The notes: generated by a model not told the origin, from the sequence alone. A stretch of 64,000 bases of DNA from Pseudomonadota bacterium (GCA_048498735.1 JBEHXK010000008.1:2604-66603); one strand, 5' to 3'. Numbered from the stretch's first letter, positions 32,413-48,972 are shown. Numbers and translations are program-made.

Positions 32413-33345
32413 ATGGCAATCAACTCAGAACAAAAACAAGAATTAGATAATTTAAGAACACTTTCCTTCAAAACAAAACGCGCTACAGTTCCAGCATTGG
32501 AAGAAATTTTATTTGAACCGATTCAGGTTCTTGATCACGGCTTTGTGCGCGTGGTTGATTATTTCGGTGATGATTCAGCGATCGTACAGGCGGCCCGCGT
32601 TTCTTATGGAAAAGGCACTAAGCAGGTGAACCAGGATAAAGGTTTGATAAACTATCTGATGCGCCACTGGCATACAACACCATTTGAAATGTGTGAGATA
32701 AAATTCCATATAAAACTTCCGATGTTTATTGCGCGTCAATGGATCCGCCATAGAACTGCAAATGTGAATGAATATTCTGCACGCTATTCGATCATGGATA
32801 AGGAATTTTATGTTCCTAAGCCAGAACATCTTGCACCACAATCAAAACAGAACCATCAGGGAAGAAGTGACCAGCCACTTGAAGGAAAAGAAGCTGCGAG
32901 GGTATTGGATATATTAAAGGGCGATTCGCTTCAATGTTATGATCACTATGAAGAAATGCTAAATTCAGATCAGCTGGGTAACATTAAAGATGAGAATAAT
33001 TTGGGTTTGGCACGTGAACTTGCGCGTATGAACCTAACTCTTAATTATTATACACAATGGTATTGGAAAATTGATCTTCACAATCTGTTCCACTTCCTGA
33101 TGTTGCGTGCTGATCCGCATGCGCAATATGAGATACGCGCTTATGCTGATGTTATGCTTGATATCGTAAAACGCTGGGTTCCTTTCGCATATGATGCTTT
33201 CATGGAATATAAAATGCATGGTGCGCATGTTTCGCGCACTGGCATGGAAGTGCTTAAGAGAATGATCGCGGGTGAGAAGATCACTCAGGAATCTTCAGGT
33301 ATGACTAAGCGCGAATGGGAAGAACTTACAGCAAAACTTAAATAG
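32413..33345 (+). CDS. thyX: FAD-dependent thymidylate synthase
   Basis: [31 protein letters not shown] and HAQYEIR motifs. Confidence 0.97.
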
Positions 33346-34573
33346 TTTTCTTTGCCAGGCCCAATAACTCACGTTTTTCATTTTCACTTAGGAATGTAGC
33401 GGCATTTATTCTGTTCCACAGGCTTTCTGTTCTGGGTGTTAGGGCAGAAATGGTTTCAGTGTCATAAGAAATGAACAGATTATCACTGCGTTTATACATT
33501 GGCACCAGCCAGCGATTTAAAGCATCACAAAGATCATCCATTAATGGAAGAATTGTTTGCTCCCAAAGAGCAAGACGTGCTTCTGATAGGTTGCTATAAG
33601 TATTATCTCCAGGAATGCCGAGAAGTTGCGGTGGTACGCCAAAGGCCAGTGAAATTTCACGCGCACTCATATTTTTACATTCCAGATAATCCATATCTTT
33701 ATGTGAAAGACTCATTTCCTTCCAGTCCAATCCACCTTCAAGGATTATTGGCCTACCGGCATTATCATAGCCACTATATTGTTCTTCAATTTGATTGCGA
33801 ATGCGTGAAAATTGTTCTTCTGTTAACCTTCCCACGCCGCCTTCAGAAGCCGGTTTAACAACCAAGGCTCCACTTGGTTTTGCACCATTTTGTAATAGTG
33901 CCTGATTCCATTTCGCTGCCTGATTATGTTGATCTATACTGTATGCCGCTGCTTCGATCGGCGATAGACCAAAATGATCATTAAGCGGATGGAAATTCTT
34001 GCAATGAAGTATTGCCGATTTTCCTGAGATCTTATCAACCGGATATTTGATCTCCTTATTATTTATCGAATAGAGATAATTATTAACATAACCATCTTTA
34101 TCGGTTGAAATACTTATCCTGTCGGGGCGTAAAGTATAGAGTTCACGTGGTGTTCCATCGGCAGAATTGATTGAGAGAATAAAACTATTTCCGCTGATAA
34201 GTTTATACGAAATTACTGATTCAAAGAATAATGAACCATTAGTAAGCGGGTTTGGGTAATTTAAAATATCGATTATCGGGTGTTTTTTAACGAGGTTTTT
34301 TTCATTGGAGGTAACATTATATAATTTCCAATCGATCGAAGCGACCAACTTGGAAACATAAGAAATGCACTTATAGGCGATAACATTTTTTGTATAGGCT
34401 TCGTCAGCAAATTTTGTATAATTTCTGCTCATCCATACAGGTTTTACGGGTTCATGAAAGTAAGTCTGATAGCCTATTTCACGCGCAAGCTGATCGTAAA
34501 GACCGTTATTTTTGACAGTTTTTGATCTGCCAAATAAATTGAAATTTTTGACACCGCTTTTTTTCTTACCCAT
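33338..34573 (-). CDS. HK97-family portal protein, RcGTA g3-like
   Basis: [65 protein letters not shown] and EKRELLG motifs. Confidence 0.94.
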
Positions 34574-34605
34574 TTTTACCTCGTATAAGTTGTAATAATT
34601 TCTAA

Positions 34606-34639
34606 ATTATAAGTTGAGAAAAACCTGTCCGGAAGTGCA
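34606..34639 (-). promoter_or_regulatory. Putative GTA-specific promoter of the portal gene
   Basis: Minus strand TGCAC-TTCCGG-N17-TATAAT; same architecture as 38503-38536. Confidence 0.6.
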
Positions 34640-34658
34640 TGAAATGCAAAAACAGTTC

Positions 34659-34686
34659 TTGCTTGCTTTAAAATCCCTATTATTAT
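34659..34686 (+). promoter_or_regulatory. Putative sigma70 promoter of recA
   Basis: TTGCTT-N16-TATTAT, 28 nt before the recA ATG. Confidence 0.4.
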
Positions 34687-34714
34687 TGACTCAACTTGAA
34701 TCTCAGAGGGTTTT

Positions 34715-35728
34715 ATGGATAAGAAAAAAGCACTAGAATCTGCACTTAGTCAGATTGAAAAAGCATATGGTAAAGGCTCAGTAATGAAACTGGGCGATAA
34801 AGAAATCGTTAAAGTTGAAGCAATATCTACTGGTTCATTGGGTCTTGATATGGCCCTTGGAGTAGGTGGTGTTCCAAGAGGAAGGGTGATCGAAATATTT
34901 GGCCCTGAATCTTCTGGTAAAACTACCTTAACGCTGCACATTGTTGCAGAAGCTCAGAAAAAAGGCGGTAATTGCGCATTCATAGATGCGGAACACGCAC
35001 TTGATTCAGTATATGCCAGCAAACTTGGCGTTAAGATTGATGATCTGGTCGTTTCTCAGCCGGATACTGGTGAACAGGCTTTAGAAATAGCAGATACATT
35101 AGTTCGTTCCGGCGCATTTGACGTTATCGTTGTAGATTCTGTTGCTGCACTTGTACCTAAAGCGGAGATCGAAGGCGAAATGGGCGATGCACAAATGGGT
35201 GCACAAGCAAGGTTAATGAGTCAGGCGCTTCGTAAGCTTACCGGTTCAATTTCTAAAACTAACTGCACTGTTATTTTCATCAACCAGATCCGTCAGAAAA
35301 TTGGCGTGATGTTTGGTAACCCTGAAACAACGACAGGCGGTAATGCGCTTAAATTCTATGCCTCTGTTCGTTTGGATATCAGAAGAATTGGTGCAATTAA
35401 GGATAAAGAAGAGGTTATAGGTAACCAGACGCGTGTTAAAGTTGTTAAGAACAAAGTTGCCCCTCCTTTCAGACAGGTGGATTTCGAGATCATCTATGGC
35501 GAAGGTATCAGCAGACTTGGTGAAACAATTGATATGGGCGTTAATGCCAATATCATTGAAAAATCAGGCTCATGGTTCACTTATGGCGCACAGCGCATTG
35601 GCCAGGGTAAGGAAAACGCAAAACAGTTCCTGAAGGAAAACCCTGCAATTGCTGAAGAGATCGAAGCTAAGATCAGGGCGACCCTTCCTGCTGGCGGCGC
35701 GACCGTTGGTGGCGAAGATGCAGCTTAA
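34715..35728 (+). CDS. recA: Recombinase A
   Basis: [33 protein letters not shown] and [12 protein letters not shown] motifs. Confidence 0.99.
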
Positions 35729-35765
35729 AAGCTTGCAAAATTAGCTTTTCTTCTCATAAAATTTG

Positions 35766-35810
35766 CAATATTAACAGCCCTGCTGCTATAACAGCAGGGT
35801 AATAATATTG
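35766..35810 (+). other. Stem-loop between recA and alaS, no U-tract
   Basis: CAATATTA-acag-CCCTGCTG-ctataa-CAGCAGGG-taa-TAATATTG: two stacked 8-bp stems. Confidence 0.65.
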
Positions 35811-35818
35811 GTATTTAA

Positions 35819-38488
35819 ATGTCGACAACTCCTAGAACACTCAGCGAGGTTAGAAAAAGCTTTCTGGAATTTTTCCGTTCCAAAGGGCATGAGATAGTTC
35901 CATCAGCACCACTACTTCCTCATAATGACCCAACGCTAATGTTCACCAATGCCGGCATGGTTCCATTCAAGAACGTTTTTGTAGGCAAGGAAGAATTAAA
36001 AGGCAAATCAAGCGGTAAAGTTGTTAAAGCTGCTTCGGTACAGAAATGCGTTCGCGCCGGCGGCAAGCATAATGACCTTGATAATGTTGGCTATACTGCA
36101 CGCCACCATACTTTCTTTGAGATGCTTGGTAATTTCAGCTTTGGTGATTATTTCAAAGAACATGCGATTCAGTATGCATGGGAATATCTGACAAAAGTTC
36201 TGAACCTCCCGGAAGAAAAACTTCTGGTTACGGTTTATCATAATGATGATGATGCTTTCAATATTTGGAAGAAAGTTGCAAAACTTCCTGATGAAAAGAT
36301 CATTCGCATAACTTCAGATGATAATTTTTGGGCGATGGGTGATACCGGCCCATGCGGACCTTGCAGCGAGATATTCTATGATCACGGCCCTTCTATAGCA
36401 GGTGGCCCTCCAGGCTCACCTGAACAGGATGGTGATAGGTTCATTGAAATATGGAACCTGGTTTTCATGCAATTTGAAAAGCATGAAGATGGTTCGCGCA
36501 CGAACCTGCCAAAACCATGTATTGATACAGGTATGGGCCTGGAACGTATCACAACGATTATGCAGAATGTGCACGATAATTATGAGATAGATATATTTAA
36601 AAACCTGATAGCGGCATCGAAGGAAATTTCAAAACGTGAAGGGGAGAAATATGAAGTTTCTCATCGCGTTATCGCGGATCATTTACGTTCATCATGTTTC
36701 CTGATCGCAGACGGTATTTTACCTTCAAACGAGGGCAGGGGCTATGTATTGCGTCGTATAATGCGCCGTGCAATGCGCCATTGCCATATATTAGACCCTA
36801 AACACACATGGTTTTATAAAATGATCCCTGCGCTGATAGAAAATATGGGCGCTGCCTATCCAGAGCTGCAACGTGCGGAAAGCCTGCTTACACAAACATT
36901 AAAAAGCGAAGAAGAAAAATTTCGTGAAACTCTTGATAACGGCCTGAAAATATTAGAAGGCGAGTTGAAAGGAGTTAAATCTGGCGGAGAATTGAAAGGT
37001 GAGATAGCCTTTAAACTATATGATACATATGGTTTCCCGCTAGATCTGACGCAGGATATTCTACGCAGCAAAAATATCAAAGTTGATATTAAAGGCTTTG
37101 ATGAAGCGATGGAAAAACAGCGCGAACAGGCGCGTGCTAACTGGGCTGGTAGTGGCGAACAATCTGCTGGCGAATTATGGTTAAATATTGCGAAGAAAAA
37201 TCCTAGCACTGAATTCACTGGTTATACCACACTTAAATCACGCGCTGAGATCGCAAGCATTGTAGTTGGTGATAAAGAAATTAATAAGGCACCTGTTGGT
37301 GAAGCAGCTATCATAACCAACCAGACACCATTCTATGCAGAATCGGGTGGTCAGGCTGGTGATACAGGCATTATATATTCTGATAAATTTAAATTTGAAG
37401 TGGTAACAACGAAGAAATTTGGCGGATTATTTGTTCATTTTGGTAAAATTATTTCAGGCGAAGCATCAGTTGGTGATGATGTTAATTTAGAAGTTAATGG
37501 CCAAAGGCGCGATGCACTGAAAAGAAACCACTCCGCAACGCATATATTACATGCAGTTTTGCGTAGAAAACTTGGTGATCACATCAGCCAGAAAGGTTCA
37601 TTGGTTGAGGCTGACTATTTGCGTTTTGATTTTTCTAATCAGAAAGCGGTTTCGAAAGAACAACTTGCTGAAATAGAGAGAGAAGTTAATCAAATAATCA
37701 TCCAAAACAGTGAAAGCACAACTCGCGTTATGCCTATAAAACAGGCGATGGAGAGCGGTGCGGTTGCTTTATTCGGTGAGAAATATGGAGATGAGGTTCG
37801 TGTAGTTTCTATGGGCCTGGAACAGGATAATGATAAGAAATATTCAATAGAATTTTGTGGTGGAACACACGTTAGCCGTACTGGTGATATAGGATTGTTT
37901 AAAATCACGAAAGAGCTTGCGGTTGCTTCCGGCGTTAGAAGAATTGAAGCAGTTACAGGTAATAAAGCGGTTGAATATATCCAGGGCAGAGAAGGAATTA
38001 TATCTTCAGTACAGGATAGGTTAAAAACTTCTCCGGAAGATTTTGATAACAGAATATCCGGCCTGATGAATGAGAAGAAAAATCTTGAAGGGCAGATATC
38101 TGACTTGAAAAAGAAGCTTGTGATGGGCGGTGAGGCTGGAAAATCTTCATCTGGAGTTGCTGCTGAGAATATAAATGGCGTTGCATTCATTGGCCAGAAA
38201 CTTGCTGGAATTGAGCCTAAAGATCTTCGCGGCCTGATTGATTCATATAAAAAACAGAATGAGAATTCTGTAATCGTTCTGATTTCTGATAATGAAGGCA
38301 AAGCATCTATCGCTGCGGGCGTATCGGAAAAACTGATAAATAAATTCAGCGCAGTTGAGTTAGTAAAAAAATCTTCAGAAATAATGGGCGGTAAAGGCGG
38401 CGGCGGCAGGCCAGATTTTGCTCAGGGTGGTGCGCCTTCCAGCATTAATGCTGAACAGGCTTTCGCAGAGATAAAAAAATTATTTTAA
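35819..38488 (+). CDS. alaS: Alanine--tRNA ligase
   Basis: FTNAGM, RHHTFFEMLGNFSFGDYFK, NHSATH, CGGTHV and GGKGGG motifs. Confidence 0.98.
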   Translation: MSTTPRTLSEVRKSFLEFFRSKGHEIVPSAPLLPHNDPTLMFTNAGMVPFKNVFVGKEELKGKSSGKVVKAASVQKCVRAGGKHNDLDNVGYTARHHTFFEMLGNFSFGDYFKEHAIQYAWEYLTKVLNLPEEKLLVTVYHNDDDAFNIWKKVAKLPDEKIIRITSDDNFWAMGDTGPCGPCSEIFYDHGPSIAGGPPGSPEQDGDRFIEIWNLVFMQFEKHEDGSRTNLPKPCIDTGMGLERITTIMQNVHDNYEIDIFKNLIAASKEISKREGEKYEVSHRVIADHLRSSCFLIADGILPSNEGRGYVLRRIMRRAMRHCHILDPKHTWFYKMIPALIENMGAAYPELQRAESLLTQTLKSEEEKFRETLDNGLKILEGELKGVKSGGELKGEIAFKLYDTYGFPLDLTQDILRSKNIKVDIKGFDEAMEKQREQARANWAGSGEQSAGELWLNIAKKNPSTEFTGYTTLKSRAEIASIVVGDKEINKAPVGEAAIITNQTPFYAESGGQAGDTGIIYSDKFKFEVVTTKKFGGLFVHFGKIISGEASVGDDVNLEVNGQRRDALKRNHSATHILHAVLRRKLGDHISQKGSLVEADYLRFDFSNQKAVSKEQLAEIEREVNQIIIQNSESTTRVMPIKQAMESGAVALFGEKYGDEVRVVSMGLEQDNDKKYSIEFCGGTHVSRTGDIGLFKITKELAVASGVRRIEAVTGNKAVEYIQGREGIISSVQDRLKTSPEDFDNRISGLMNEKKNLEGQISDLKKKLVMGGEAGKSSSGVAAENINGVAFIGQKLAGIEPKDLRGLIDSYKKQNENSVIVLISDNEGKASIAAGVSEKLINKFSAVELVKKSSEIMGGKGGGGRPDFAQGGAPSSINAEQAFAEIKKLF

Positions 38489-38502
38489 ATTTTTTTGCCC
38501 GG

Positions 38503-38536
38503 TGTACTTCCGGGTAAATACATCGCGGCGTAATCT
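38503..38536 (+). promoter_or_regulatory. Putative GTA-specific promoter of the protease-capsid-baseplate operon
   Basis: TGTAC-TTCCGG-N17-TAATCT; same architecture as the portal promoter. Confidence 0.6.
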
Positions 38537-38566
38537 TAGATCAAGCAATCAAGCTTGGATAAGATT

Positions 38567-39103
38567 ATGGATAGAAAAACCTCAGAGTTCGCACTCAATA
38601 TAAAATCACTTAATGAAGAAGGCTATTTTGCGGGTTATGCCAGTGTTTTTAATGTTGAAGATAATCATGGCGACGTAATTCTTACAGGTGCTTTCGGCAA
38701 TTCATTAATAAAGAACCGTTTTGGCAAAGATATTAAACTTTTGTGGCAGCACAAAAGCGATGAGCCGATCGGTATCTTTACAAAAATGTTTGAAGATGAG
38801 CACGGCTTATACGTTGAAGGTAAGCTTTTACTTGATATCCAGCGGGCTAAGGAAGCCTATGCACTTTTGGTTAATGGCGGCCTGAAAGGCTTAAGCATTG
38901 GTTTCATTGTTAAAGACTATGAAATTAATGATAAGGGGGTCAGGCTTATATACGAGGCCGACCTATGGGAAATAAGCCTTGTAACCTTTCCGGCAAATAC
39001 TCATGCAACCGTTACTGAAGTTAAAGCACATGAACTTCAGTCCAATGATCTATCTGATCTTGAAAGCTCAATTCAGAAGGCAATCGCCACTCTGATAAAT
39101 TAA
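38567..39103 (+). CDS. HK97-family prohead protease, RcGTA g4-like
   Basis: GYASVF, LLWQH (His), PIG, GLSIGF (Ser) and LWEISLVTFPA motifs. ATG 38567 preferred over TTG 38555. Confidence 0.94.
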   Translation: MDRKTSEFALNIKSLNEEGYFAGYASVFNVEDNHGDVILTGAFGNSLIKNRFGKDIKLLWQHKSDEPIGIFTKMFEDEHGLYVEGKLLLDIQRAKEAYALLVNGGLKGLSIGFIVKDYEINDKGVRLIYEADLWEISLVTFPANTHATVTEVKAHELQSNDLSDLESSIQKAIATLIN

Positions 39104-39121
39104 TAATAAGGAAAAATAAAA

Positions 39122-40321
39122 ATGACAATTTCTACAATAAATCAAAAAGTCGATAAACTCGGCAATGCGTGGGAAGAATTTAAAAAACTCAATGATCGCA
39201 GATTGCAGGAGATCGAGCACAAAGGTTCATCTGATGTTTTGACGGTTGAACATTTAAATCGCATTGGTTCTGCACTAGACGGATATAAATCACGCCTGGA
39301 TTCGCTTGAAACTGCTTATAATCGCCCCGAATTCAGCAGTGCGGATTATAACCAAAATGCAACCGCAGAAGTAATTGCCGAACATAAGAACGCTTTCCTG
39401 AACTATATCCGTAAAGGTGTTGAAGGTGATCTGGCGTTCTTAGAGCAAAAAGCACTTTCTAATGGCAGTGATGTTGATGGTGGTTATCTAGTTACCCCTA
39501 AACTATATGAAAATATGGCTCAGAAGATATTTGAAACATCTCCTATGAGACAACTTGCATCTGTTATGACAATGTCTACTGACACATTTGATGTTATCCA
39601 GGATATGGATACACCTGGTGTAGGCTGGTCAGCTTCTGAAACAGCAGTTGTTTCAGAATCTACAACTCCTCAGATTTCAAAAGTATCAATCGATGCATAT
39701 GAAGTTGTAGCACAACCTAAAGCCACACAAAAACTTATCGATGATGCGACTATTGATATCGAACAATGGATGACAGAAAAACTTGTGGATGCTTTCTCGC
39801 GACTAGAAAACACAGCATTTGTTTCTGGTGATGGTTCTGGTAAGCCAAAAGGTATTCTATCATATACAGCAGGTACTGGCGCAGGGCAGATCGAGCAAAT
39901 TCTATCTGGTACATCAGCAGTAGTTACTGCAGATGGTCTGATAAAATTATATTATGCACTAAAAGATGAATATGCTCGCAAGGCCACATTCTTAATGAAC
40001 CGCGCTACAGTTCAGGCTGTTAGATTACTTAAAGATACAACCAACCAATATATATGGAACCCCGGCCTGGCAGTTGGCACTCCAGATACATTGATGGGCG
40101 TTCCAGTAATGCTTGCAACAGATATTCCTGTTCCTGCAGCAGCATCACTTTCAGTTGCGGTGGGTGATTTTAAACGTGCTTATCAGATCGTTGACAGGCA
40201 CGGCGTTAGAATTCTGAGAGATCCATACACGGAAAAACCATTTGTTAAATTCTACACTACAAAACGTGTAGGCGGTCAGGTGGTAAACTTCGAAGCCGTA
40301 AAAATCCTTAAACTATCTTAA
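39122..40321 (+). CDS. HK97-fold major capsid protein, RcGTA g5-like
   Basis: DGGYLV, SPMRQLA, P.ATQKLIDD, F..GDG.GKPKG, GDF..AY and LRDPY..KPFV.FY.TKRVGG motifs. Confidence 0.95.
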   Translation: MTISTINQKVDKLGNAWEEFKKLNDRRLQEIEHKGSSDVLTVEHLNRIGSALDGYKSRLDSLETAYNRPEFSSADYNQNATAEVIAEHKNAFLNYIRKGVEGDLAFLEQKALSNGSDVDGGYLVTPKLYENMAQKIFETSPMRQLASVMTMSTDTFDVIQDMDTPGVGWSASETAVVSESTTPQISKVSIDAYEVVAQPKATQKLIDDATIDIEQWMTEKLVDAFSRLENTAFVSGDGSGKPKGILSYTAGTGAGQIEQILSGTSAVVTADGLIKLYYALKDEYARKATFLMNRATVQAVRLLKDTTNQYIWNPGLAVGTPDTLMGVPVMLATDIPVPAAASLSVAVGDFKRAYQIVDRHGVRILRDPYTEKPFVKFYTTKRVGGQVVNFEAVKILKLS

Positions 40322-40332
40322 TTAATAACAGG

Positions 40333-40362
40333 TTTGCGGATCTGGAAAGCCAGGTTCGCAGA
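40333..40362 (+). other. GC-rich hairpin after the capsid gene (stabiliser/attenuator-like, no U-tract)
   Basis: TTTGCGGATCTGG-aaag-CCAGGTTCGCAGA forms a 13-bp stem including G-U pairs. Confidence 0.65.
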
Positions 40363-40379
40363 TCACAATAATTAAAAAA

Positions 40380-40919
40380 ATGAAACCTCCTGTTATAGAA
40401 ATATTTCAGGCGCCATCGGTTGAGCCGGTATCGCTTGATGAAGCAAAAACCTATCTGCGTATAGATGGTGAGAATGAAGACGATCTGATAAACAGCATGA
40501 TTTCTGCGGCACGTATAACGACAGAAAAATATATTGGTCTTTCGATCATTTCTCAAAAGATCAAACTTTCATATGACGAATGTGTTCCAACGGAAATCAT
40601 TCTGCCTTATGGGCCCGTTACTGCCATCGATTCAGTTACCATTATTGATACTGATGAAAATGATAATCTGCTTGATAATTCAAATTATTATTTGAGTGCG
40701 GGTAAGGTAAGTCTGATTTTCAATCAGCAGCCATATGGTCGCAGAACGGAAATAATATACAGCACAGGCCTAGCAACAGATGAAAGTGATGTTCCAGCAA
40801 TTCTGAAACAGGGCTTATTTGCACATATCGCAGGGCTTTATGAAAGAAAGGATGCTTCGGCTGCAATGAGTTCGGCATCTATATCGCTTTATAATTTTTA
40901 TCGCAATGTAAGGATATAA
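40380..40919 (+). CDS. Head-tail connector/adaptor, RcGTA g6-like
   Basis: P.VEPVSLDEAKTYLRID..EDDLI..I.AAR...E, VP..LKQ...IA.LYE.K and C-terminal YR.VRI motifs. Confidence 0.9.
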   Translation: MKPPVIEIFQAPSVEPVSLDEAKTYLRIDGENEDDLINSMISAARITTEKYIGLSIISQKIKLSYDECVPTEIILPYGPVTAIDSVTIIDTDENDNLLDNSNYYLSAGKVSLIFNQQPYGRRTEIIYSTGLATDESDVPAILKQGLFAHIAGLYERKDASAAMSSASISLYNFYRNVRI

Positions 40920-40920
40920 C

Positions 40921-41523
40921 ATGACCTCATTCCATGATGTTAGATTTCCTGCGGATATATCATTTAAAGCCAAGGGTGGGCCAGAATTTAAAACCGATAT
41001 AGTTACACTTTCGAGCGGTCAGGAGAAACGCAATATTTCCTGGGAATCTGCACGCCACAGATACATTCTCGATTATAAGGATATATCATCGGCACAGGCT
41101 AAACAGATAAATGAATTCTTCATGGCGAGAAGAGGTCGGGCCTATGGTTTCAGATATAAAGACTGGAATGATTATACTGCCAAGAACCAGCTTATAGGCA
41201 CAGGTGATGGCACAACGAAACAATTTCAATTAGTAAAAAATTATGGTGAAGAAAATTTTAGCTTTCAAAGAAGAATTAGACGACCGGTTAGCGGGAATGT
41301 GGTTCTTTATATTAATTCTACCCAGCAACAGAACAACTTTTCTGTCGATTATAGCACTGGAATTATCAATTTTAATACAGCTCCTACCCTACATCTTCCA
41401 ATAACCGCCAGCTTTGAATTTGATGTGCCCGTCAGGTTCAATACAGACCTGCTTGAAAGCGATGTGGAGAATTTCTCAAAAACCAGCACACGCAAAATAG
41501 AATTAATAGAAGTTAAGAATTAA
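40921..41523 (+). CDS. GTA baseplate/distal-tail protein, RcGTA g12-like (DUF2460)
   Basis: FHDVRFP, GGPEF.T, SG.E.RN..W, FF.ARRG...GFR.KD, GDG....FQL.K.Y and FEFDVPVRF motifs. Confidence 0.93.
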   Translation: MTSFHDVRFPADISFKAKGGPEFKTDIVTLSSGQEKRNISWESARHRYILDYKDISSAQAKQINEFFMARRGRAYGFRYKDWNDYTAKNQLIGTGDGTTKQFQLVKNYGEENFSFQRRIRRPVSGNVVLYINSTQQQNNFSVDYSTGIINFNTAPTLHLPITASFEFDVPVRFNTDLLESDVENFSKTSTRKIELIEVKN

Positions 41524-41526
41524 GCC

Positions 41527-42360
41527 ATGAAACAGATATCAGATAATCTGCAGGCTCACCTGCAATCGGAAGTGACCACGCTTACATTCTGCTGGAAGAT
41601 CACGCTTTCCGATAGCAGCGTACTTGGTTTCACATCACATGATGATAATATAATTTTTGATGGGGTTTCATATATAAGCAGATCCGGCTTTACCCTGGAT
41701 CAATATGCAGGAGATCTGCCGCAAAACGGTAATAGCCTTGAAATACTAGGTATTATTGATTCAGATTTTTTTAACGAGGTTGATATAAGATCAGGCCGCT
41801 TTGATAATGCGGAAGTGGAAATATTCGCATTGAATTATGTTTCACCTACTGATGGTAAAGTGATTTTAAAGAAAGGGATAATTTCAGAGATCACAAATAC
41901 TGGAGATGGTTTTGCAGTAAATATAAAAGGCATCAGTGACAGACTAAATAAAACGCTCACACAATGTTACTCACCCTTATGCCGTGCCAAATTTGGTGAT
42001 GATAAATGTAAGATAGATGCAGCATCATATACTTATACCGGTACAGTCACTAATGTAACGGACGAACGTAATTTTGCCGATACATCCCGTACAGAACAGA
42101 ACGGATATTTCAATAAAGGCATAATAAAATTCACATCAGGTTCTAATGCCGGTTTCTCGACAGAAATTAAGATATCAGCAGGTTCCGCGCTGACATTATC
42201 GATACCTTTTCCGAACAAAATAAATATCGGTGATGCCTATCAGATAACCGCCGGATGCGACAAAAGTTTCCCCACATGCATCTCAAAATTTTCCAACTCA
42301 ATTAATTTTCGTGGCGAACCAGACATTCCGGGAATTAATAAAATTTTCAAGGTCAGCTGA
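41527..42360 (+). CDS. GTA baseplate hub protein, RcGTA g13-like (DUF2163)
   Basis: TT...CW....D....GFT.HD, GRFDNAEV, CRAKFGD.KC and GCDK...TC..KF.N..NFRGEP.IPG motifs. Confidence 0.93.
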   Translation: MKQISDNLQAHLQSEVTTLTFCWKITLSDSSVLGFTSHDDNIIFDGVSYISRSGFTLDQYAGDLPQNGNSLEILGIIDSDFFNEVDIRSGRFDNAEVEIFALNYVSPTDGKVILKKGIISEITNTGDGFAVNIKGISDRLNKTLTQCYSPLCRAKFGDDKCKIDAASYTYTGTVTNVTDERNFADTSRTEQNGYFNKGIIKFTSGSNAGFSTEIKISAGSALTLSIPFPNKINIGDAYQITAGCDKSFPTCISKFSNSINFRGEPDIPGINKIFKVS

Positions 42361-42806
42361 TGGATTTGCGAGAACAAATAATAGCCAAAGCGCGTGAATG
42401 GCTTGATACGCCTTTTGTTCATCAAGGGTGCAAAAAGGGCAAAGGCTGTGATTGCTTAGGTCTTATTCTTGGTGTTGGCGAAGAGCTTGGAATAAAATTC
42501 AATGGTATTCCACTGAAGAGATATGCACCTGCCAATTACAGCAGAACGCCAAACGGTTTATTGTTGAAGCAAAGATTAGATGCGCTGCTCAAAAAGAAAG
42601 AGAAAAAAGATATAAAACCCGGTGATATATTTTTGATGAATTTTGGGAGCAACCCACAACATCTGGGTTTTTTCAGTAATTATGAAAATGATTCCGCAGC
42701 CCTTGGTTTAATTCATTGTTATTCGCAGACCGGCAAAGTGGTTGAGCATAGGCTCACAAAATTCTGGCATGAGAAAATCGAGCAAGTTTATTCAATTACG
42801 GATTAG
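42360..42806 (+). CDS. NlpC/P60 cell-wall peptidase, RcGTA g14-like
   Basis: AREWLDTPF.HQG, GCDCLGL (Cys), PGD, HLG and IH: catalytic residues present. Confidence 0.92.
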   Translation: MDLREQIIAKAREWLDTPFVHQGCKKGKGCDCLGLILGVGEELGIKFNGIPLKRYAPANYSRTPNGLLLKQRLDALLKKKEKKDIKPGDIFLMNFGSNPQHLGFFSNYENDSAALGLIHCYSQTGKVVEHRLTKFWHEKIEQVYSITD

Positions 42807-42808
42807 TT

Positions 42809-45800
42809 ATGGCAACAGCAATTATCACAAGCGCAGCAGGAAATCTAACATCGTCGGTAACCAGAAGTTTGGGAATTAACTCTATTCCTTTCGCAGGCAG
42901 TGCATTGTCGAGCATACTTAATAGTCAGGTGAGGTCGCTTGGTACGCAGCTTGGTAATGAAATAGATTCAGCCCTTTCTGATGAAGTTATAAATAAAATT
43001 AAAGGGCCAAGACTAACGGATCTGACAGTTCAAACCTCAACCTATGGTGATGTTATACCACTGGTTTTTGGCAGGATAAAACTTTCAGGAAATGTGATCT
43101 GGGCATCAGATATAAAAGAAATAGGTGTTACTAACACTATAAATGGCGGAGGGAAGGGCGGCAGCGTTGCTGCGCCTAAAACAACTCAAACCCAATATCA
43201 ATATAAAGTAACATTTGCAGTTGCCCTGTGTGAAGGAGAAATTACAGGCATTGAAAGAGTGTGGGCGGATAATGACTTGATAAACTTAAGCGACTATTGC
43301 ACTTCATATACTTTATATAAAGGTGATGAAAGCCAGATGCCTGATACAATAATAGAATCATATGAAGGTATTGGAAATGTACCGGCATACAGAGGTATGG
43401 CCTATATTGTGTTTGAGGATTTTGATCTTAATTCGTTTGGTAATCGTATTCCAAATTTGGCATTTGAAGTTAACCGCACATTGAAAGGTAGTTTTAGTGG
43501 CACCGGTTCAGCAGAAGACTTAGTAACTGCAATAACCTTGATTCCTGGCTCAGGAGAATTTGTGTATGACACGATTGTGCAGAAGAAAATATATGGTGTG
43601 GTGGTTAATGATACATTTATCCAGCGCGGTGGCAGCGATATTATAAATATGAATAACGCCAGCAATAAGGCGGATGTTCTGGTTTCACTCGATATGCTGC
43701 AGGAAACCTTTCCCAATCTGGAATGGGTTTCGATAGTTTGTGCATGGTTTGCCGATTCACTTGATGCGAATGCAGCAACAATTAAGCCCGGTGTTGAATA
43801 TAAAGAAAACACCACCACAACACCTGATGTCTGGAGTGTTGGGGGTTATGATCGCGATACGGCAAAGCAGATAACCGTGGTTGATGGCAGCGCAATATAT
43901 GGAGGCACACCAAATGATCAATCTATCATAAGGCTGATAGATGAACTAAAGAGCCGCGGCTTGAAAGTTATGTTCTATCCGATGTTGTTTGTGGATAATA
44001 CCGATAAACCTTGGCGCGGACACATCACAACTTCTCCAGCGAATATTCCAAACTTTTTTACAAAAACCTATGGTTATAATGATTTCATTTTGCACTATGC
44101 CAATCTGGTAAAAAATAAAGCCGATGCATTTATCATAGGTTCAGAATTAAAAGGCCTTACCCAAGTGCAGGATGGGTCAAATAATTTCCCTGCAGTTGCA
44201 CAATTGGTCAGCCTTGCGGGCTCAGTTAAAAGCACCATGGGTTCTTACACAAAAATCACATATGCCGCAGATTGGAGTGAATATCATTCAGTTAATGGTT
44301 GGTATAATATGGATGGTTTGTGGGCGAGCAGCAATATAGATATGATCGGCATTGATGCTTATTTCCCGCTGACCAATCGTCCGCAGAATGGTATATATGA
44401 TGTTCAGGAAGTGATTGATGGCTGGACCAGTGGCGAGGGATATGACTATTATTATAATTACCCTGATCGGATTACGCAGAACACACTTGGCGTCGCCTAT
44501 GCATGGAAAAATATAGCATGGTGGTGGGGCAATCATCATACTAATCCAAATTCGGTGCAAACTTCATGGGTGCCGCAATCAAAGAAAATCTGGTTTACGG
44601 AATTCGGCTTTCCTTCTGTGGATGGTGCTACTAACCAACCTAATGTATTCTACAATCCGGAATCAACTGAAAGTGCGCTACCATATTTTTCTGAAGGCTA
44701 TAATGATTTTTCTGCACAGCGTTTGGGTATAGAGGCTACACTGTTAAAATGGCAGAACTCTAATATGATTGAAGAAAAATTCTTATGGACATGGGATGCA
44801 AGGCCATACCCATTCTGGCCGGATTTACTCGATGTATGGAGTGATGGCAGCGTATGGAGCAAAGGCCATTGGGTGAATGGTAAATTAGGCCAGGCAGACT
44901 TAGGTGCCGTTGTTAAGGAAATTTCAACCCGCTCTAATATTGAAGGAGATATAATTGATATTTCATGCCTGCAGCAGAATGTTGATGGATTTATTTTAAA
45001 CACAAGAATATCGGGTGCAAAGGCCATAGAGAAACTAAAAGATGCATATTTTTTTAATGGTTGCGAAATCGATGAGGATTTAAGATTCATTACCAGTGGC
45101 AGAGAGAGTGAGCTGGCAATTTCGGAAGATGACCTTGCGGATATTGGTAAGCAGAAACTGGTAATAAATTATATTTCTGTAACCTATCTGCCATCACATA
45201 TGGATGTGAACTTCATAAAGCGCGACAATAATTATGGAATTGGCACAACAAGCAATTCACGCGATAGTATCTCCATAAAACAGATATATGAATGTAATTT
45301 CCCACTAGTAATAGATGAGCAAAAAGCAAAATCTATTGCAGAGATATCAGTTGCTGAGAACTGGCTGGCACGGAAATTATATAAGTTTTATTTGCCGCTG
45401 AAATATATCACTTTGGATATTGGTGATTTAATAAGCCTTTCGCTTAATAACGGAAATATCGAAAAACTACGCGTGGGAAAGATAATATATAATAAGAATT
45501 ACCTAACTATCACAGGCAAGGGTTTTGATTCATCCATATATGAAATGAGAAGTAAGCAGGATTATGAGCCTGGCAATAATGTTGAGACCTCCTCGCTACA
45601 GACAGAAACGGTGGTTGAATTTTTAGACCTTCCAGCACTTTCTGAATCTGATATTGATCCGGGCACTATAAGAATTGCAGCTTGCGGGAGAAATTCTAAC
45701 TGGCATGGTGCAGAAATATTTTATTCTTTCTCCGATAATTTCCAATCGCTAACACGGATAGAAACCCCTTCAGTAATGGGAAATGCCATTGATACATTAC

Positions 45801-46522
45801 CGGATGGAAATCCATTTATATTCGATGAGAACACGGAAATAGAAATTTATCTTTTAAATGGTGAACTGACATCGGTCACTCAAGATGAAGTGATAAATGG
45901 AAGTAACCTGGCGATTATTGGCGATGAAATAATTCAATTTAGCGAAGCTGAGTTTATTGAGGAAAATCGTTATATGATAAAAGGATTATTACGCGGGCGC
46001 TATGGGACGGAAGATAAAACAAGCACGCATGTTGCGGGCGAAAGATTTATTCTGCTCGACCAGAATATAGTGCGGGTTGAATTACCAAAAACATTTATAA
46101 ATTCGGATATAAATTTTAAGGCAGTTACTTTTGGCCAGAATATAAATGATGTAGATGCTGAAAATTTTCACTATAGGGCGAATAACCTTATACCACTTTC
46201 GCCGGTTTATGTAACTGCAAGCAAAGATGGCAGTGGTGATATAAACATTTCCTGGGAGAGAAGATCGCGCGAATTTTCAGGTTGGCATGATTATGTGGAT
46301 ATACCGCTGGCAGAAGGGGCGGAAAAATATGTGCTCAATATTCTGGATGGGTCTAATAATGTAATCAGGACTATTCAGCCCACTGATCAATATTATATCT
46401 ATTTGAATTCTGAGCAGATTTCAGATTTTGGCGGTGCGGTTACCAGTTTAAATATAGAACTCTGCCAATTCTCGCAGGTAATGGGTAATGGTATTGAAAA
46501 ACAAGCGAATTTCAGCTTATAG
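42809..46522 (+). CDS. GTA 'megatron' baseplate/host-specificity protein, RcGTA g15-like, with TIM-barrel glycoside-hydrolase-like domain
   Basis: GPRL.DL, GNVIWA, PAYRG.AY.VFE, FGNRIP, LIPGSGEFVY, GGTP.D, IGSE, YAADWSEY, WFTEFG, WTWDARPYP, GHW.NG and LLRG..GTE motifs; 1237 aa. Confidence 0.94.
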   Translation: MATAIITSAAGNLTSSVTRSLGINSIPFAGSALSSILNSQVRSLGTQLGNEIDSALSDEVINKIKGPRLTDLTVQTSTYGDVIPLVFGRIKLSGNVIWASDIKEIGVTNTINGGGKGGSVAAPKTTQTQYQYKVTFAVALCEGEITGIERVWADNDLINLSDYCTSYTLYKGDESQMPDTIIESYEGIGNVPAYRGMAYIVFEDFDLNSFGNRIPNLAFEVNRTLKGSFSGTGSAEDLVTAITLIPGSGEFVYDTIVQKKIYGVVVNDTFIQRGGSDIINMNNASNKADVLVSLDMLQETFPNLEWVSIVCAWFADSLDANAATIKPGVEYKENTTTTPDVWSVGGYDRDTAKQITVVDGSAIYGGTPNDQSIIRLIDELKSRGLKVMFYPMLFVDNTDKPWRGHITTSPANIPNFFTKTYGYNDFILHYANLVKNKADAFIIGSELKGLTQVQDGSNNFPAVAQLVSLAGSVKSTMGSYTKITYAADWSEYHSVNGWYNMDGLWASSNIDMIGIDAYFPLTNRPQNGIYDVQEVIDGWTSGEGYDYYYNYPDRITQNTLGVAYAWKNIAWWWGNHHTNPNSVQTSWVPQSKKIWFTEFGFPSVDGATNQPNVFYNPESTESALPYFSEGYNDFSAQRLGIEATLLKWQNSNMIEEKFLWTWDARPYPFWPDLLDVWSDGSVWSKGHWVNGKLGQADLGAVVKEISTRSNIEGDIIDISCLQQNVDGFILNTRISGAKAIEKLKDAYFFNGCEIDEDLRFITSGRESELAISEDDLADIGKQKLVINYISVTYLPSHMDVNFIKRDNNYGIGTTSNSRDSISIKQIYECNFPLVIDEQKAKSIAEISVAENWLARKLYKFYLPLKYITLDIGDLISLSLNNGNIEKLRVGKIIYNKNYLTITGKGFDSSIYEMRSKQDYEPGNNVETSSLQTETVVEFLDLPALSESDIDPGTIRIAACGRNSNWHGAEIFYSFSDNFQSLTRIETPSVMGNAIDTLPDGNPFIFDENTEIEIYLLNGELTSVTQDEVINGSNLAIIGDEIIQFSEAEFIEENRYMIKGLLRGRYGTEDKTSTHVAGERFILLDQNIVRVELPKTFINSDINFKAVTFGQNINDVDAENFHYRANNLIPLSPVYVTASKDGSGDINISWERRSREFSGWHDYVDIPLAEGAEKYVLNILDGSNNVIRTIQPTDQYYIYLNSEQISDFGGAVTSLNIELCQFSQVMGNGIEKQANFSL

Positions 46523-46542
46523 CTTTATGTGCCAGTAAAGGC

Positions 46543-46570
46543 TTGACAGGCCGGGTTATTTATATATGTT
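46543..46570 (+). promoter_or_regulatory. Putative sigma70 promoter of rpmJ
   Basis: TTGACA-N16-TATGTT. Confidence 0.45.
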
Positions 46571-46595
46571 TGGCCTTCCAAAATTAAGAGATTTT

Positions 46596-46721
46596 ATGAA
46601 AGTTGTTAATTCACTTAAATCCGCAAAACTTCGCGATAAGAACTGCCGCATCGTGCGCAGGAAAGGCAGGGTTTATGTTATCAATAAGAAAAACCCTAAG
46701 CTAAAAGCTCGCCAAGGCTAA
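46596..46721 (+). CDS. rpmJ: 50S ribosomal protein L36, type B (no zinc ribbon)
   Basis: Below the ORF track size cut-off. Translates as [41 protein letters not shown]. Confidence 0.96.
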
Positions 46722-46727
46722 TTAGTA

Positions 46728-47723
46728 TTATTTTACGGTCAGATTAAGTATCTCATAAAGGAATTTCTCTCCTTTATCTTTTATTATCTTGTCCTTGAGC
46801 GATTGTGCTGCCTGTTTTCCAAGGGCATGTCCATCTTCTGAACTTTTTTCAATTTGATATAAATTATTACCTGCTTCATCCGAGATCTCAGCTTTCAGGA
46901 TAATATTTCCTCCCGAAATTTCTGCGTAAGCACCAATAACAGTATGGCAATTGCCGCCAAGTTCATAAAGAAATTCTCTTTCAACAATAGTGATTCTTTC
47001 AGTTGGCGCATGGTTTATTTGGCGAAGCAGATCAAAACAATTTTTATTATCAGCGCGACATTCAACACCAATAGTCCCTTGGCCTGCTGCCGGCAGCATT
47101 TCATCATATGACAGTTTGAAATAAAACAGATCGGAAAGATCAAGATTGTCACCACTTCTGATTATTGCAGATTCTGCCATAAGAATTGCATCATAGGCGA
47201 GTGGTTTATGTTCGGTCCAAACATGCATTCCCTTCAACTTTGCAATTCTGGTTTGAACGTTGCCGCGCAGGTTCTTAACGATAAGTTCAGGGTTTGAGCG
47301 TAGTAATGCAGCTTTCCTGCGCGCGGATACTGTTCCAACAACATAACCTGCCGGTAGCTCTTTGAGATTTTTAAAAGTTTTATCTTTTAGAATGATTACG
47401 TCCGCTGCCGATTCCCTTTTTAGGAAAGCTGCGAAGACTAATTCTTCTTCCCGCATATTGCCGGCAACATCTTTCATCGAATGAACGGCAATATCAATTT
47501 CGCCGCGTTTCAAGGCTTTCTGTATTTCGCTGGTGAAAGCGCTTTTGCCATCTTCAAAAATATCACGTAGAGGTTTATGATGAACCTGATCTCCCTTGGT
47601 GTTCATACCAACGATTTGGAAATCTATATCTGGATTTTTTTCTTTGAGTTTTTTGATAACAAGATCTGTCTGCGTGAGTGCAAGACTACTTTTGCGCGTG
47701 CCAACTTTAATTGTTTTTGCCAT
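46728..47723 (-). CDS. hemC: Hydroxymethylbilane synthase
   Basis: GTRKS.LA..Q, T.GD, DIAVHSMKD, RGNVQTR, PAAGQG and GGNC motifs. Confidence 0.94.
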   Translation of the reverse strand: MAKTIKVGTRKSSLALTQTDLVIKKLKEKNPDIDFQIVGMNTKGDQVHHKPLRDIFEDGKSAFTSEIQKALKRGEIDIAVHSMKDVAGNMREEELVFAAFLKRESAADVIILKDKTFKNLKELPAGYVVGTVSARRKAALLRSNPELIVKNLRGNVQTRIAKLKGMHVWTEHKPLAYDAILMAESAIIRSGDNLDLSDLFYFKLSYDEMLPAAGQGTIGVECRADNKNCFDLLRQINHAPTERITIVEREFLYELGGNCHTVIGAYAEISGGNIILKAEISDEAGNNLYQIEKSSEDGHALGKQAAQSLKDKIIKDKGEKFLYEILNLTVK

Positions 47724-47763: not shown

Positions 47764-48075
47764 TTAGATCGACATCCTGATGATATCCTGGAAGGCGCTG
47801 ACCAATCTGTCACGTATAGCAATAACAGTTCTTAAACTGGTTTCTGCATTTGCAACTGCTACAGCTAAGTCTTCAGTGCTTACTTCACCGGTTACAGATT
47901 TTTTACCGGCTGTTTCCGCAGTTTTTAATTTATCAAAAGTATTGCCAAGTGCGGCTTCAACCATTTCAGTGAAGCTTGAGCCATCAGTGCCTTCAGCATC
48001 TTCAGTATAGTTTCCCTGAAGCTGTGCCATTTTATTATAGGCGGATAATGCATCTAATGTTTTAAGGTCTGCCAT
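47764..48075 (-). CDS. fliE: Flagellar hook-basal body protein FliE
   Basis: SF.EM...AE.S...IAIRDRLV.AFQDIIRM.I C-terminus; follows flgC. Confidence 0.92.
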   Translation of the reverse strand: MADLKTLDALSAYNKMAQLQGNYTEDAEGTDGSSFTEMVEAALGNTFDKLKTAETAGKKSVTGEVSTEDLAVAVANAETSLRTVIAIRDRLVSAFQDIIRMSI

Positions 48076-48092
48076 GAATATAGTTTCCCTTT

Positions 48093-48557
48093 TTATCGCA
48101 TTAAATCAAGTGCTCTTTGCTGTATCTGTTTTGTATTTTCAATCGCGCTGATATTTGCCTCATAACTTCTTTGCGCTTCGCGAAGATCCATAGACTCAAG
48201 AGCAGGATCAACATTAGGATATTTCACATAGCCCTGTGCATCAGCTGCAGGATGATTTGGTTGATACATAAGTTTGAAATCAGAATTATCAAAATCAGTT
48301 TTTCTAACCTGAACCAGATTGGCGCCGGTTTTTGGATCTTTTGTTTCTTCAAAAAACACTAACTTTCTGCGATATGGAATATCTGTTGGGCTGATACCTG
48401 TTGTGTTAGCGTTGGCGATATTTTCAGTGACTATACGAATTCTTTGACTTTGCGCCTGCATGGCAGAGGCAGAAGTGCTTAATGAATCATCCAGCGGTCC
48501 TGCAAGAGCTGCAACCGGAAAAAGTAATGAGATGAGAATGTATATTCTTTTAAGCAT
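48093..48557 (-). CDS. flgC: Flagellar rod protein FlgC with a signal-peptide-like N-terminal extension
   Basis: SAM.AQS.R....ENIANA, PYRRK, YQP.HPAAD..GYV.YPNV and EAQRSYEAN motifs, plus an extra N-terminal MLKRIYILISLLFPVAALA. Confidence 0.93.
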   Translation of the reverse strand: MLKRIYILISLLFPVAALAGPLDDSLSTSASAMQAQSQRIRIVTENIANANTTGISPTDIPYRRKLVFFEETKDPKTGANLVQVRKTDFDNSDFKLMYQPNHPAADAQGYVKYPNVDPALESMDLREAQRSYEANISAIENTKQIQQRALDLMR

Positions 48558-48928
48558 TAGCTGTTACTGCTATTTCCAAGAGCATCGCTGATCAGTGCCA
48601 TGATCTTTTTATATGTCGCCGATGCAGTGGTGAAGTCAGTATTATTTTTTGCCAGTTCAACCGCTTCCATATCAAGCTGAACAGTATCTTTTGTTTCCAC
48701 CACAGGATTTTCCTGCGAAGAATTTAAACCTTTAATGTGGTTAGCGTGAGTTGTTTCCAGAGTCACCATTGAGGATTGAACCATGGAAGCAAAATCCGGC
48801 TGGTTGATATCCTTACGCATATAGTTTGGAGTGTTCGCATTGGCGATATTCTCTGAAAGCACCTTCTGGCGTTCAGTATCATATTTCATTTTTGTGGCAA
48901 GCATGCCAAGTAAAGATGTATCAGCCAT
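48557..48928 (-). CDS. flgB: Flagellar rod protein FlgB (divergent)
   Basis: RQKVLSENIANANTPNY..KD, T...HI and V.LD.E......N motifs; precedes flgC. Confidence 0.88.
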   Translation of the reverse strand: MADTSLLGMLATKMKYDTERQKVLSENIANANTPNYMRKDINQPDFASMVQSSMVTLETTHANHIKGLNSSQENPVVETKDTVQLDMEAVELAKNNTDFTTASATYKKIMALISDALGNSSNS

Positions 48929-48972
48929 AACCAAATCTTATCTATAAATTGCCTTCAATCAAGCCGCAGGCC

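Follow-up and report, generated by a model that had tools for sequence, protein, structure and literature searches.

The closest described relatives of the element reported here are RcGTA, the gene transfer agent (GTA) of Rhodobacter capsulatus, and the reduced RcGTA-like gene sets of the Rickettsiales. RcGTA stacks several hexamers in series: its stopper, terminator, tube and distal tail proteins are paralogs that share one fold. Every stopper subunit binds to the loops of two adjacent adaptors, the tape measure and an iris of megatron N-termini hold the packaged DNA, and particles lacking the tape measure occur, as the text of Bardy et al. 2020 (PMC7296036) describes. Small GTA clusters in Rickettsiales were described by Shakya et al. 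2017. According to the main text of George et al. [quoted passage not shown] The stretch of DNA analysed here (the window) comprises 64,000 nucleotides (nt) of a Pseudomonadota bacterium (GCA_048498735.1 JBEHXK010000008.1:2604-66603). Its draft genome (G000; 1.77 Mb, 20 contigs, estimated completeness 100%) putatively belongs to an uncultured Rickettsiales lineage, and the nearest named loci come from environmental metagenome-assembled genomes (MAGs) labelled Rickettsiales bacterium or Alphaproteobacteria bacterium. The window bears an RcGTA-type operon in which the head genes run directly into the baseplate genes, and this locus is best explained as a vertically inherited, selection-maintained, cut-down RcGTA-type GTA.

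An open reading frame (ORF) listing combined with Pfam and NCBIfam scans placed genes g4-g5-g6-g12-g13-g14-g15 in a single operon (38555-46522, plus strand), composed as follows:

38555..39103, plus strand: g4, HK97-type prohead serine protease (PF04586, E 3.8e-32; TIGR01543, E 5.6e-37)
39122..40321, plus strand: g5, HK97-fold major capsid protein, 399 aa (PF05065, E 4e-79; TIGR01554, E 6.4e-106)
40380..40919, plus strand: g6, head-tail adaptor, 179 aa (TIGR02215, E 2.1e-24; phrog_442, E 2.2e-20)
40921..41523, plus strand: g12, distal tail protein (Dit ring) of the Rcc01695 family, 200 aa (PF09343, E 8.6e-71)
41527..42360, plus strand: g13, baseplate hub, 277 aa (TIGR02218, E 8.1e-71; PF09931; PF09356)
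42360..42806, plus strand: g14, NlpC/P60-type cell-wall peptidase, 148 aa (PF00877, E 6.3e-5, barely passing the cut-off; TIGR02219, E 1.7e-15, falling below its cut-off)
42809..46522, plus strand: g15, megatron, 1237 aa (NF048004, 1083.9 bits; PF13547, PF13550, PF23666)

The junction between g6 and g12 lies at 40917..40923 on the plus strand. The TAA stop codon of g6 (40917-40919) is followed by one base and then by the ATG of g12 at 40921 (AGG ATA TAA c ATG ACC in the raw sequence), with AAGGA a few bases upstream of this ATG. There is therefore no space at this point for g7-g11, and since a tblastn search with the g7-g11 genes of a relative against 40301-41000 returned noise only (best E 0.11), no remnant of them is left. 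The same direct junction was found in seven further genomes of the family set, which comprised 18 genomes of 1.3-2.3 Mb; the gaps measured 2-15 bp, and 96 bp in the broken G017. The junction is evidently the scar of a g7-g11 deletion.

The seven products retain the features of their families. The g4 ORF opens at a TTG (38555) and its probable ATG start is at 38567. The family profile of g6 matched the RcGTA adaptor Rcc01688 (6tba_2A) with an E-value of 2.6e-10, and its conserved C-terminal segment is kept in the alignment. The g12 protein aligned end to end with the RcGTA Rcc01695 chain 6tba_6B (E 4.7e-47). Megatron g15 matches NF048004 over model positions 21-1297 of 1299 and carries the GTA TIM-barrel, Phage-tail_3 and Rcc01698 C-terminal domains, with IGSE at residue 443 and WFTEFG at residue 595. 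Residues H66 and S114 of g4 were invariant in 16/16 family sequences, C32, H101 and H119 of g14 in 15/15, and E446 and E598 of g15 in 12/12; these residues are putatively catalytic, an assumption taken from general knowledge of the families. The baseplate set g12-g15 is thus present as a whole (PF09343, TIGR02218, PF00877 and NF048004, with the structural match to Rcc01695). The preliminary description of the window had reported this gene order, the one-nucleotide spacing, the missing g7-g11 remnant and the retained protease, NlpC/P60 and g15 motifs, and all of these points were borne out. At the N-terminus of g15 (window 42809-43100), the genomes with the direct junction have about 15-20 extra residues with a conserved G-[IL]-x-x-I-P motif. 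This segment is missing from tailed relatives and falls in the region that forms the iris or penetration domain in RcGTA; it could relate to DNA gating without a tape measure. Promoter-like and terminator-like sites in 33000-47000 were not more frequent than in shuffled sequence.

The whole of G000 was then considered as a possible source of the missing tail genes. No match was obtained in this genome for the tube (PF06199), stopper (PF05521), terminator (PF11367) or tape measure (PF10145, which is one common tape-measure family). Lineage hidden Markov models (HMMs) were built from the proteins of G010 and 88 related loci, with 60 members for g7, 53 for g8, 24 for g9 and only 2 each for g10 and g11; against all stop-to-stop ORFs of G000 they gave nothing at E<=10. 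Searches of G000 with phmmer found no tail gene when the g7-g11 proteins of four relatives were used, and only g12 when the 47 ORFs of a second, divergent tail-module type were used. Families PF11836, PF09550 and PF20441 were likewise without a match in G000, a negative of little weight as they are not the families matched by the g8, g10 and terminase of this lineage. Genes g7, g8 and g9 are also absent from all same-genus genomes. Two phmmer matches of relatives' ORFs in G000 proved to be false leads, a HEAT-repeat protein (C2:99130-99876) and an aminopeptidase P-like protein (C2:77022-78794). G000 has one capsid (g5 being the sole match in the genome), one portal (g3, again the sole match) and one terminase; therefore the genome holds no further phage-like element from which a tail could be borrowed. 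Within the reach of sequence methods, an ordinary split GTA, which the preliminary description had offered as one alternative, is rejected for g7-g9, while it is only unlikely that the fast-evolving chaperone and tape measure are encoded elsewhere in G000.

The distribution of these genes in the family set points to an old event. Gene g12 (PF09343) was found in 16/18 genomes, the terminase (PF17289) in 17/18 (the exception being only 73% complete), the stopper (PF05521) in 7/18 and the tail tube (PF06199) in 4/18. The direct g6-g12 junction occurs in 8/18 genomes of four genera (G000, G002, G003, G005, G008, G011, G016 and G017), of which seven retain intact reading frames. These eight genomes were monophyletic in the g4+g5+g6 tree (support 99/100) and with g4+g5 alone (Shimodaira-Hasegawa-like approximate likelihood ratio test, SH-aLRT, 100), and their nearest neighbours were G004 and G010, the latter with a full tail, at a weak support of 83. 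The GTA protein trees were used because the RecA tree of 17 family genomes was unresolved, with 11 of its 14 inner branches open. The g12+g13 tree had the same internal topology as the head tree, so head and baseplate were co-inherited. Since there is one junction clade, with a full-tail genome among its neighbours, the simplest history is a single g7-g11 deletion in the clade ancestor, after which the two modules were passed on together by vertical descent.

Intermediate arrangements were also present among the relatives. G010 has the full order g6-g7-g8-g9-g10-g11-g12; G009 has g6-g7-g8-g12 with a 94-bp gap; in G007, g6-g7-g8 is followed by a 585-bp gap and then g12; and in G004, G006 and G012 the head and baseplate modules are split. 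A wider survey covered the 80 closest capsid loci, one genome per species. The direct junction was found in two loci, both of family members already counted, and g6-g7-g12 in four loci of a distant alphaproteobacterial lineage (capsid identity 41-44%). In these four (L116, L120, L122 and L130) the order is g6-g7-g12-g13-g14-g15, the stopper standing directly before the distal tail protein, an arrangement that appears to be an independent tail truncation. Several surveyed loci had g6-g7-g8, a short gap and then g12, and most Rickettsiales loci had g6-g7-g8(-g9) with no g12 within 6-8 kb. This graded series, together with the surveyed loci, suggests that tail trimming is recurrent and that the junction clade is its end point.

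Some relatives carry further genes in or near these positions. In G007 (L137:3322-3777) and G004 (L138:10340-10936), Glu/Gln/Ala-rich ORFs of 151 and 198 aa, without family match and probably forming coiled coils, sit between the neck genes and the baseplate of these tube-less relatives and could represent a tape measure or needle in miniature. G006 has a g14-like NlpC/P60 peptidase gene directly after the stopper gene of its head module (L139:11033-11467) and a second g14 in a separate g12-g15 module (L140). In the full GTA cluster of G010, a RelB/YafQ toxin-antitoxin pair lies between terminase and portal (L042:18352-19021). A second, different phage-like module (L179, on G016:C73, and L180-L182) is found again in several of the order's genomes and explains the weak PF06199 matches. 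It encodes, in this order, a 633-756-aa protein, three small ORFs of connector size, a divergent tube of 130 aa, one ORF of chaperone size, one of tape-measure size (569-633 aa) and a g12 homolog. The tube-family match of G016 was discarded as it lies on an 8.3-kb contig with this module, and no homolog of the module was found in G000.

In order to estimate the selection acting on the operon, dN/dS was computed by the NG86 method for 10 genome pairs. In nine of them dS was uncomputable or saturated (>1.2), with dN of 0.2-0.6 where dS was saturated, which left G011-G016 as the only usable pair. Its values were 0.03 for recA, 0.09 for g5, 0.11 for g6, 0.125 for g4, 0.20 for g13 and 0.24 for g12. 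Over the seven genes, the nucleotide identity of G000 was 63.4% with G002 and 57.6% with G011, and all seven ORFs are open; when 5% random substitution was simulated, all seven stayed open in 0/1000 replicates, with a mean of 16 premature stops. The g4-g15 genes thus appear to be under purifying selection. The preliminary description had named relaxed selection, that is, a relic, as the outcome that would overturn its reading. Since the frames are open despite the divergence and dN/dS is low, this objection fails for most of the clade, in which the reduced state is old and clade-wide.

Purifying selection is weaker on the tail-side genes, as seen both from the G011-G016 values and from the strongly conserved alignment columns. 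The latter number, in the junction clade versus the other relatives, 75 versus 78 for g4, 233 versus 240 for g5, 36 versus 58 for g6, 65 versus 90 for g12, 70 versus 105 for g13, 42 versus 51 for g14 and 334 versus 437 for g15. Fixed differences between the clade and the others were most numerous in g12, at 5 of 49 jointly conserved columns (G16K, Q36K, N49E, K55I and Y85F). The g12 proteins of G011 and G016 also lack an otherwise conserved GGP motif in the alignment.

The remaining head and packaging genes lie outside the operon, and two housekeeping genes stand between the portal and g4:

33338..34573, minus strand: g3, portal protein, 411 aa (PF04860, E 4.1e-85), divergent from recA
34715-35728, plus strand: recA, between g3 and g4
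35819-38488, plus strand: alaS, between recA and g4
G000:C9:21996-23411: large terminase, 471 aa, on a contig separate from the operon

The set of terminase, portal, protease, capsid and adaptor is therefore complete, terminase and portal not being contiguous with the operon. The cluster given in the preliminary description holds for the operon genes; the portal and the C9 terminase had been missed. The portal/recA/alaS/g4 arrangement also occurs in G002, G003 and G017, and in G011 and G016 recA alone abuts g4. As the portal is inverted and split off by recA-alaS in several genomes, this housekeeping pair has been caught inside the GTA locus. The neighbouring ORFs of the terminase, among them a 135-aa candidate for a small terminase, had no Pfam match and one weak match to a PHROG of unknown function, and they were not conserved next to the terminase in five relatives. 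The surroundings of the operon are housekeeping genes (thyX, hemC, fliE/flgC/flgB, rlmH and tolB) whose synteny is kept within the genus. Flank scans, synteny and congruent trees indicate that the locus is chromosomal and vertically transmitted and has neither integrase nor replication genes. Just downstream of the cluster come the flagellar genes fliE, flgC and flgB (window 47764-48934), so the lineage is probably motile.

Taken together, these features indicate that one ancestral deletion removed g7-g11, and with them the stopper, terminator, tail tube, chaperone and tape measure, and brought g6 up against g12, and that the resulting operon has been transmitted through four genera with the portal and a terminase located elsewhere. 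The products of the operon would still form a DNA-packaging HK97-type head, whose adaptor ring would bear a very short tail: a g12 hexamer that has the hub/megatron trimer as its cap and encloses the g14 peptidase. The siphovirus tail would then be replaced by a podovirus-like stub, and the megatron iris would be the remaining DNA gate. An adaptor that carries a g12 ring and a hub/megatron tip is structurally conceivable because the RcGTA rings are paralogous and stacked. Chances are about even that the locus makes a working short-tailed particle of some kind. The fuller version, in which rings were deleted stepwise and repeatedly in separate alphaproteobacterial lineages, from the full tail through g6-g7-g8-g12 and g6-g7-g12 to g6-g12, until a working short-tailed particle had the g12 ring replacing the stopper on the adaptor and only the megatron iris to hold the DNA, is tentative and less probable.

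Of the docking of the capsid on the baseplate put forward in the preliminary description, the gene layout is confirmed. The particle itself is plausible, and the looser adaptor and baseplate constraint and two broken or deleted clade members count on the other side. A predicted complex of two g6 and one g12 scored 0.00 in a run without controls, a result that has no bearing on binding in either direction. For g12, the AlphaFold model had a mean predicted local distance difference test (pLDDT) value of 68.6, with about 50-65 in the ring domain. Substitutions N49E and K55I may lie just before the core helix, perhaps in the loop that contacts the tube in RcGTA; this placement is tentative because of the low confidence of the model in the ring domain.

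Several findings weigh against a maintained, particle-forming agent. Constraint looks relaxed on the adaptor and baseplate proteins of the junction clade and unchanged on its head proteins. With only one fixed difference in 26 jointly conserved columns, g6 offers no clear evidence of an adaptor reshaped to fit a different partner. The dN/dS estimate depends on one pair, dS being saturated in 9/10, and tape-measure and chaperone proteins evolve fast, the HMMs for them having only two members each. In G017, g6 is C-terminally truncated, g12 has a stop and g15 is split. G001, of the same genus as the window, keeps portal-recA-alaS but, beside alaS, only a 26-residue g4 remnant and two g15 fragments. 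These fragments meet head to head at about 16369, one being inverted, and alaS is split over two frames (L172:15700-17000); the state of G001 is either a real deletion or inversion, or an assembly chimera.

Part of this evidence would also fit two modules that are both in use and no longer build one particle. Capsid, portal and adaptor would then form a tail-less container or DNA-packaging head, and g12-g15 would have a separate role in cell-wall remodelling, adhesion or lysis, the two being co-located only through the deletion. The full constraint on the head beside the relaxed adaptor and baseplate, the higher dN/dS of g12 and g13 than of g4-g6, and the lack of linkage within 6-8 kb between head/neck genes and g12-g15 in most surveyed Rickettsiales loci all point this way, and repurposing and storage-compartment ideas were raised in the text of George et al. 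2022 (PMC9254644). However, the head and baseplate trees are congruent, both modules are kept together in seven of the eight junction genomes, and decay has struck both sides where it occurred, G001 being without g5 through most of g15 and G017 being broken in g6, g12 and g15. Moreover, no function outside a tail is known for the ring protein g12. This explanation is accordingly considered unlikely.

It is more improbable that the deletion disabled the agent and that its genes are a slowly decaying relic, persisting by inertia or weak selection and lost lineage by lineage. The three broken genes of G017, the deleted or rearranged G001, the relaxed baseplate constraint and the loss of the GGP motif of g12 in G011 and G016 are what such a relic would show. 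They have to be set against seven ORFs (about 2,600 codons) that are open in seven genomes at 37-42% nucleotide divergence, far above the 5% that left no simulated replicate intact, against dN/dS values of 0.09-0.24 in G011-G016 and against the invariance of the catalytic-type residues. Small genomes usually purge useless DNA, and at 1.3-2.3 Mb the present ones would be expected to do so. The least probable of the explanations weighed is an ordinary tailed agent whose neck and tube come from undetected genes, either non-homologous, extremely diverged or located in gaps between the 20 contigs of the draft. Genes g10 and g11 of G010 have no Pfam match and yielded the two-member HMMs, and the coiled-coil ORFs of G007 and G004, likewise without family match, sit in the tail slot. 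Yet the completeness estimate is 100%, g7, g8 and g9 were readily detected in 60, 53 and 24 ORFs of related loci and are missing from G000 and its congeners, no second phage-like element is present in G000, and the ORFs beside the terminase lack conservation in the five relatives. A cut-down GTA maintained by selection remains the preferred reading of the locus.

Whether the cut-down GTA sets of Rickettsiales still build anything, and of what appearance, is a question raised by George et al. 2022 (PMC9254644, main text). The junction clade offers a compact test case, with one 8-kb operon, a portal, a terminase and no other phage genes in the genome. It also has close full-tail relatives and natural intermediates, and it could reveal whether the deletion of rings is able to make a long-tailed particle short-tailed. 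A working particle would also be a minimal DNA-delivery machine; if it fails, the clade would show how long selection can hold the pieces of a disabled machine.

Compared with RcGTA, the gene order and families are alike for g3-g6 and g12-g15, and the megatron is of full length. The G000 locus differs in lacking g7, g8, g9, g10, g10.1 and g11, in its portal, which is inverted and set apart from the cluster by recA-alaS, in its terminase, which is on another contig, and, throughout the junction clade, in the 15-20 or so extra residues of the megatron N-terminal region. In podovirus-like phages such as P22 and T7, a 12-fold adaptor is followed by a 6-fold ring and a plugged, enzyme-bearing tip, without tube or tape measure. 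The G000 particle would resemble them, a likeness of architecture drawn from general knowledge of these phages. No homology to the nozzle or needle proteins of podoviruses is known. For RcGTA itself, the text of Bardy et al. 2020 (PMC7296036) notes that its tape measure is already similar to the needle of P22.

The nearest counterparts are the reduced Rickettsiales/Holosporaceae sets, as presented in the main text of George et al. 2022 (PMC9254644). The host order is probably the same, as judged from relatives. In both cases, the retained genes are those for capsid, portal, adaptor, distal tail, hub and megatron, whereas the tube and further tail parts are absent, the terminase is unlinked, dN/dS is <1 with a less constrained tail side, and there is no prophage context. 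G000 differs from these sets in that both modules stand in one contiguous operon with a one-nucleotide g6/g12 junction, that the stopper and terminator are absent too, that one deletion is common to four genera whose neighbours include a full-tail genome, and that the hosts are environmental MAGs with flagellar genes, not known endosymbionts. No description of a contiguous g6/g12 junction or of the stepwise series was found in the GTA literature texts searched, figures and supplements excepted, and judged by title or abstract no further paper in that literature deals with the loss of tail genes from GTA clusters. The distinct new architecture suggested by the preliminary description was nevertheless overstated, as the gene-content pattern is already published for Rickettsiales in the text of George et al. 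2022 (PMC9254644). What is added here is the tracing of a single deletion, its clade-wide maintenance and the natural intermediates, and the locus is best filed as a further instance of the known reduced Rickettsiales-type GTA.

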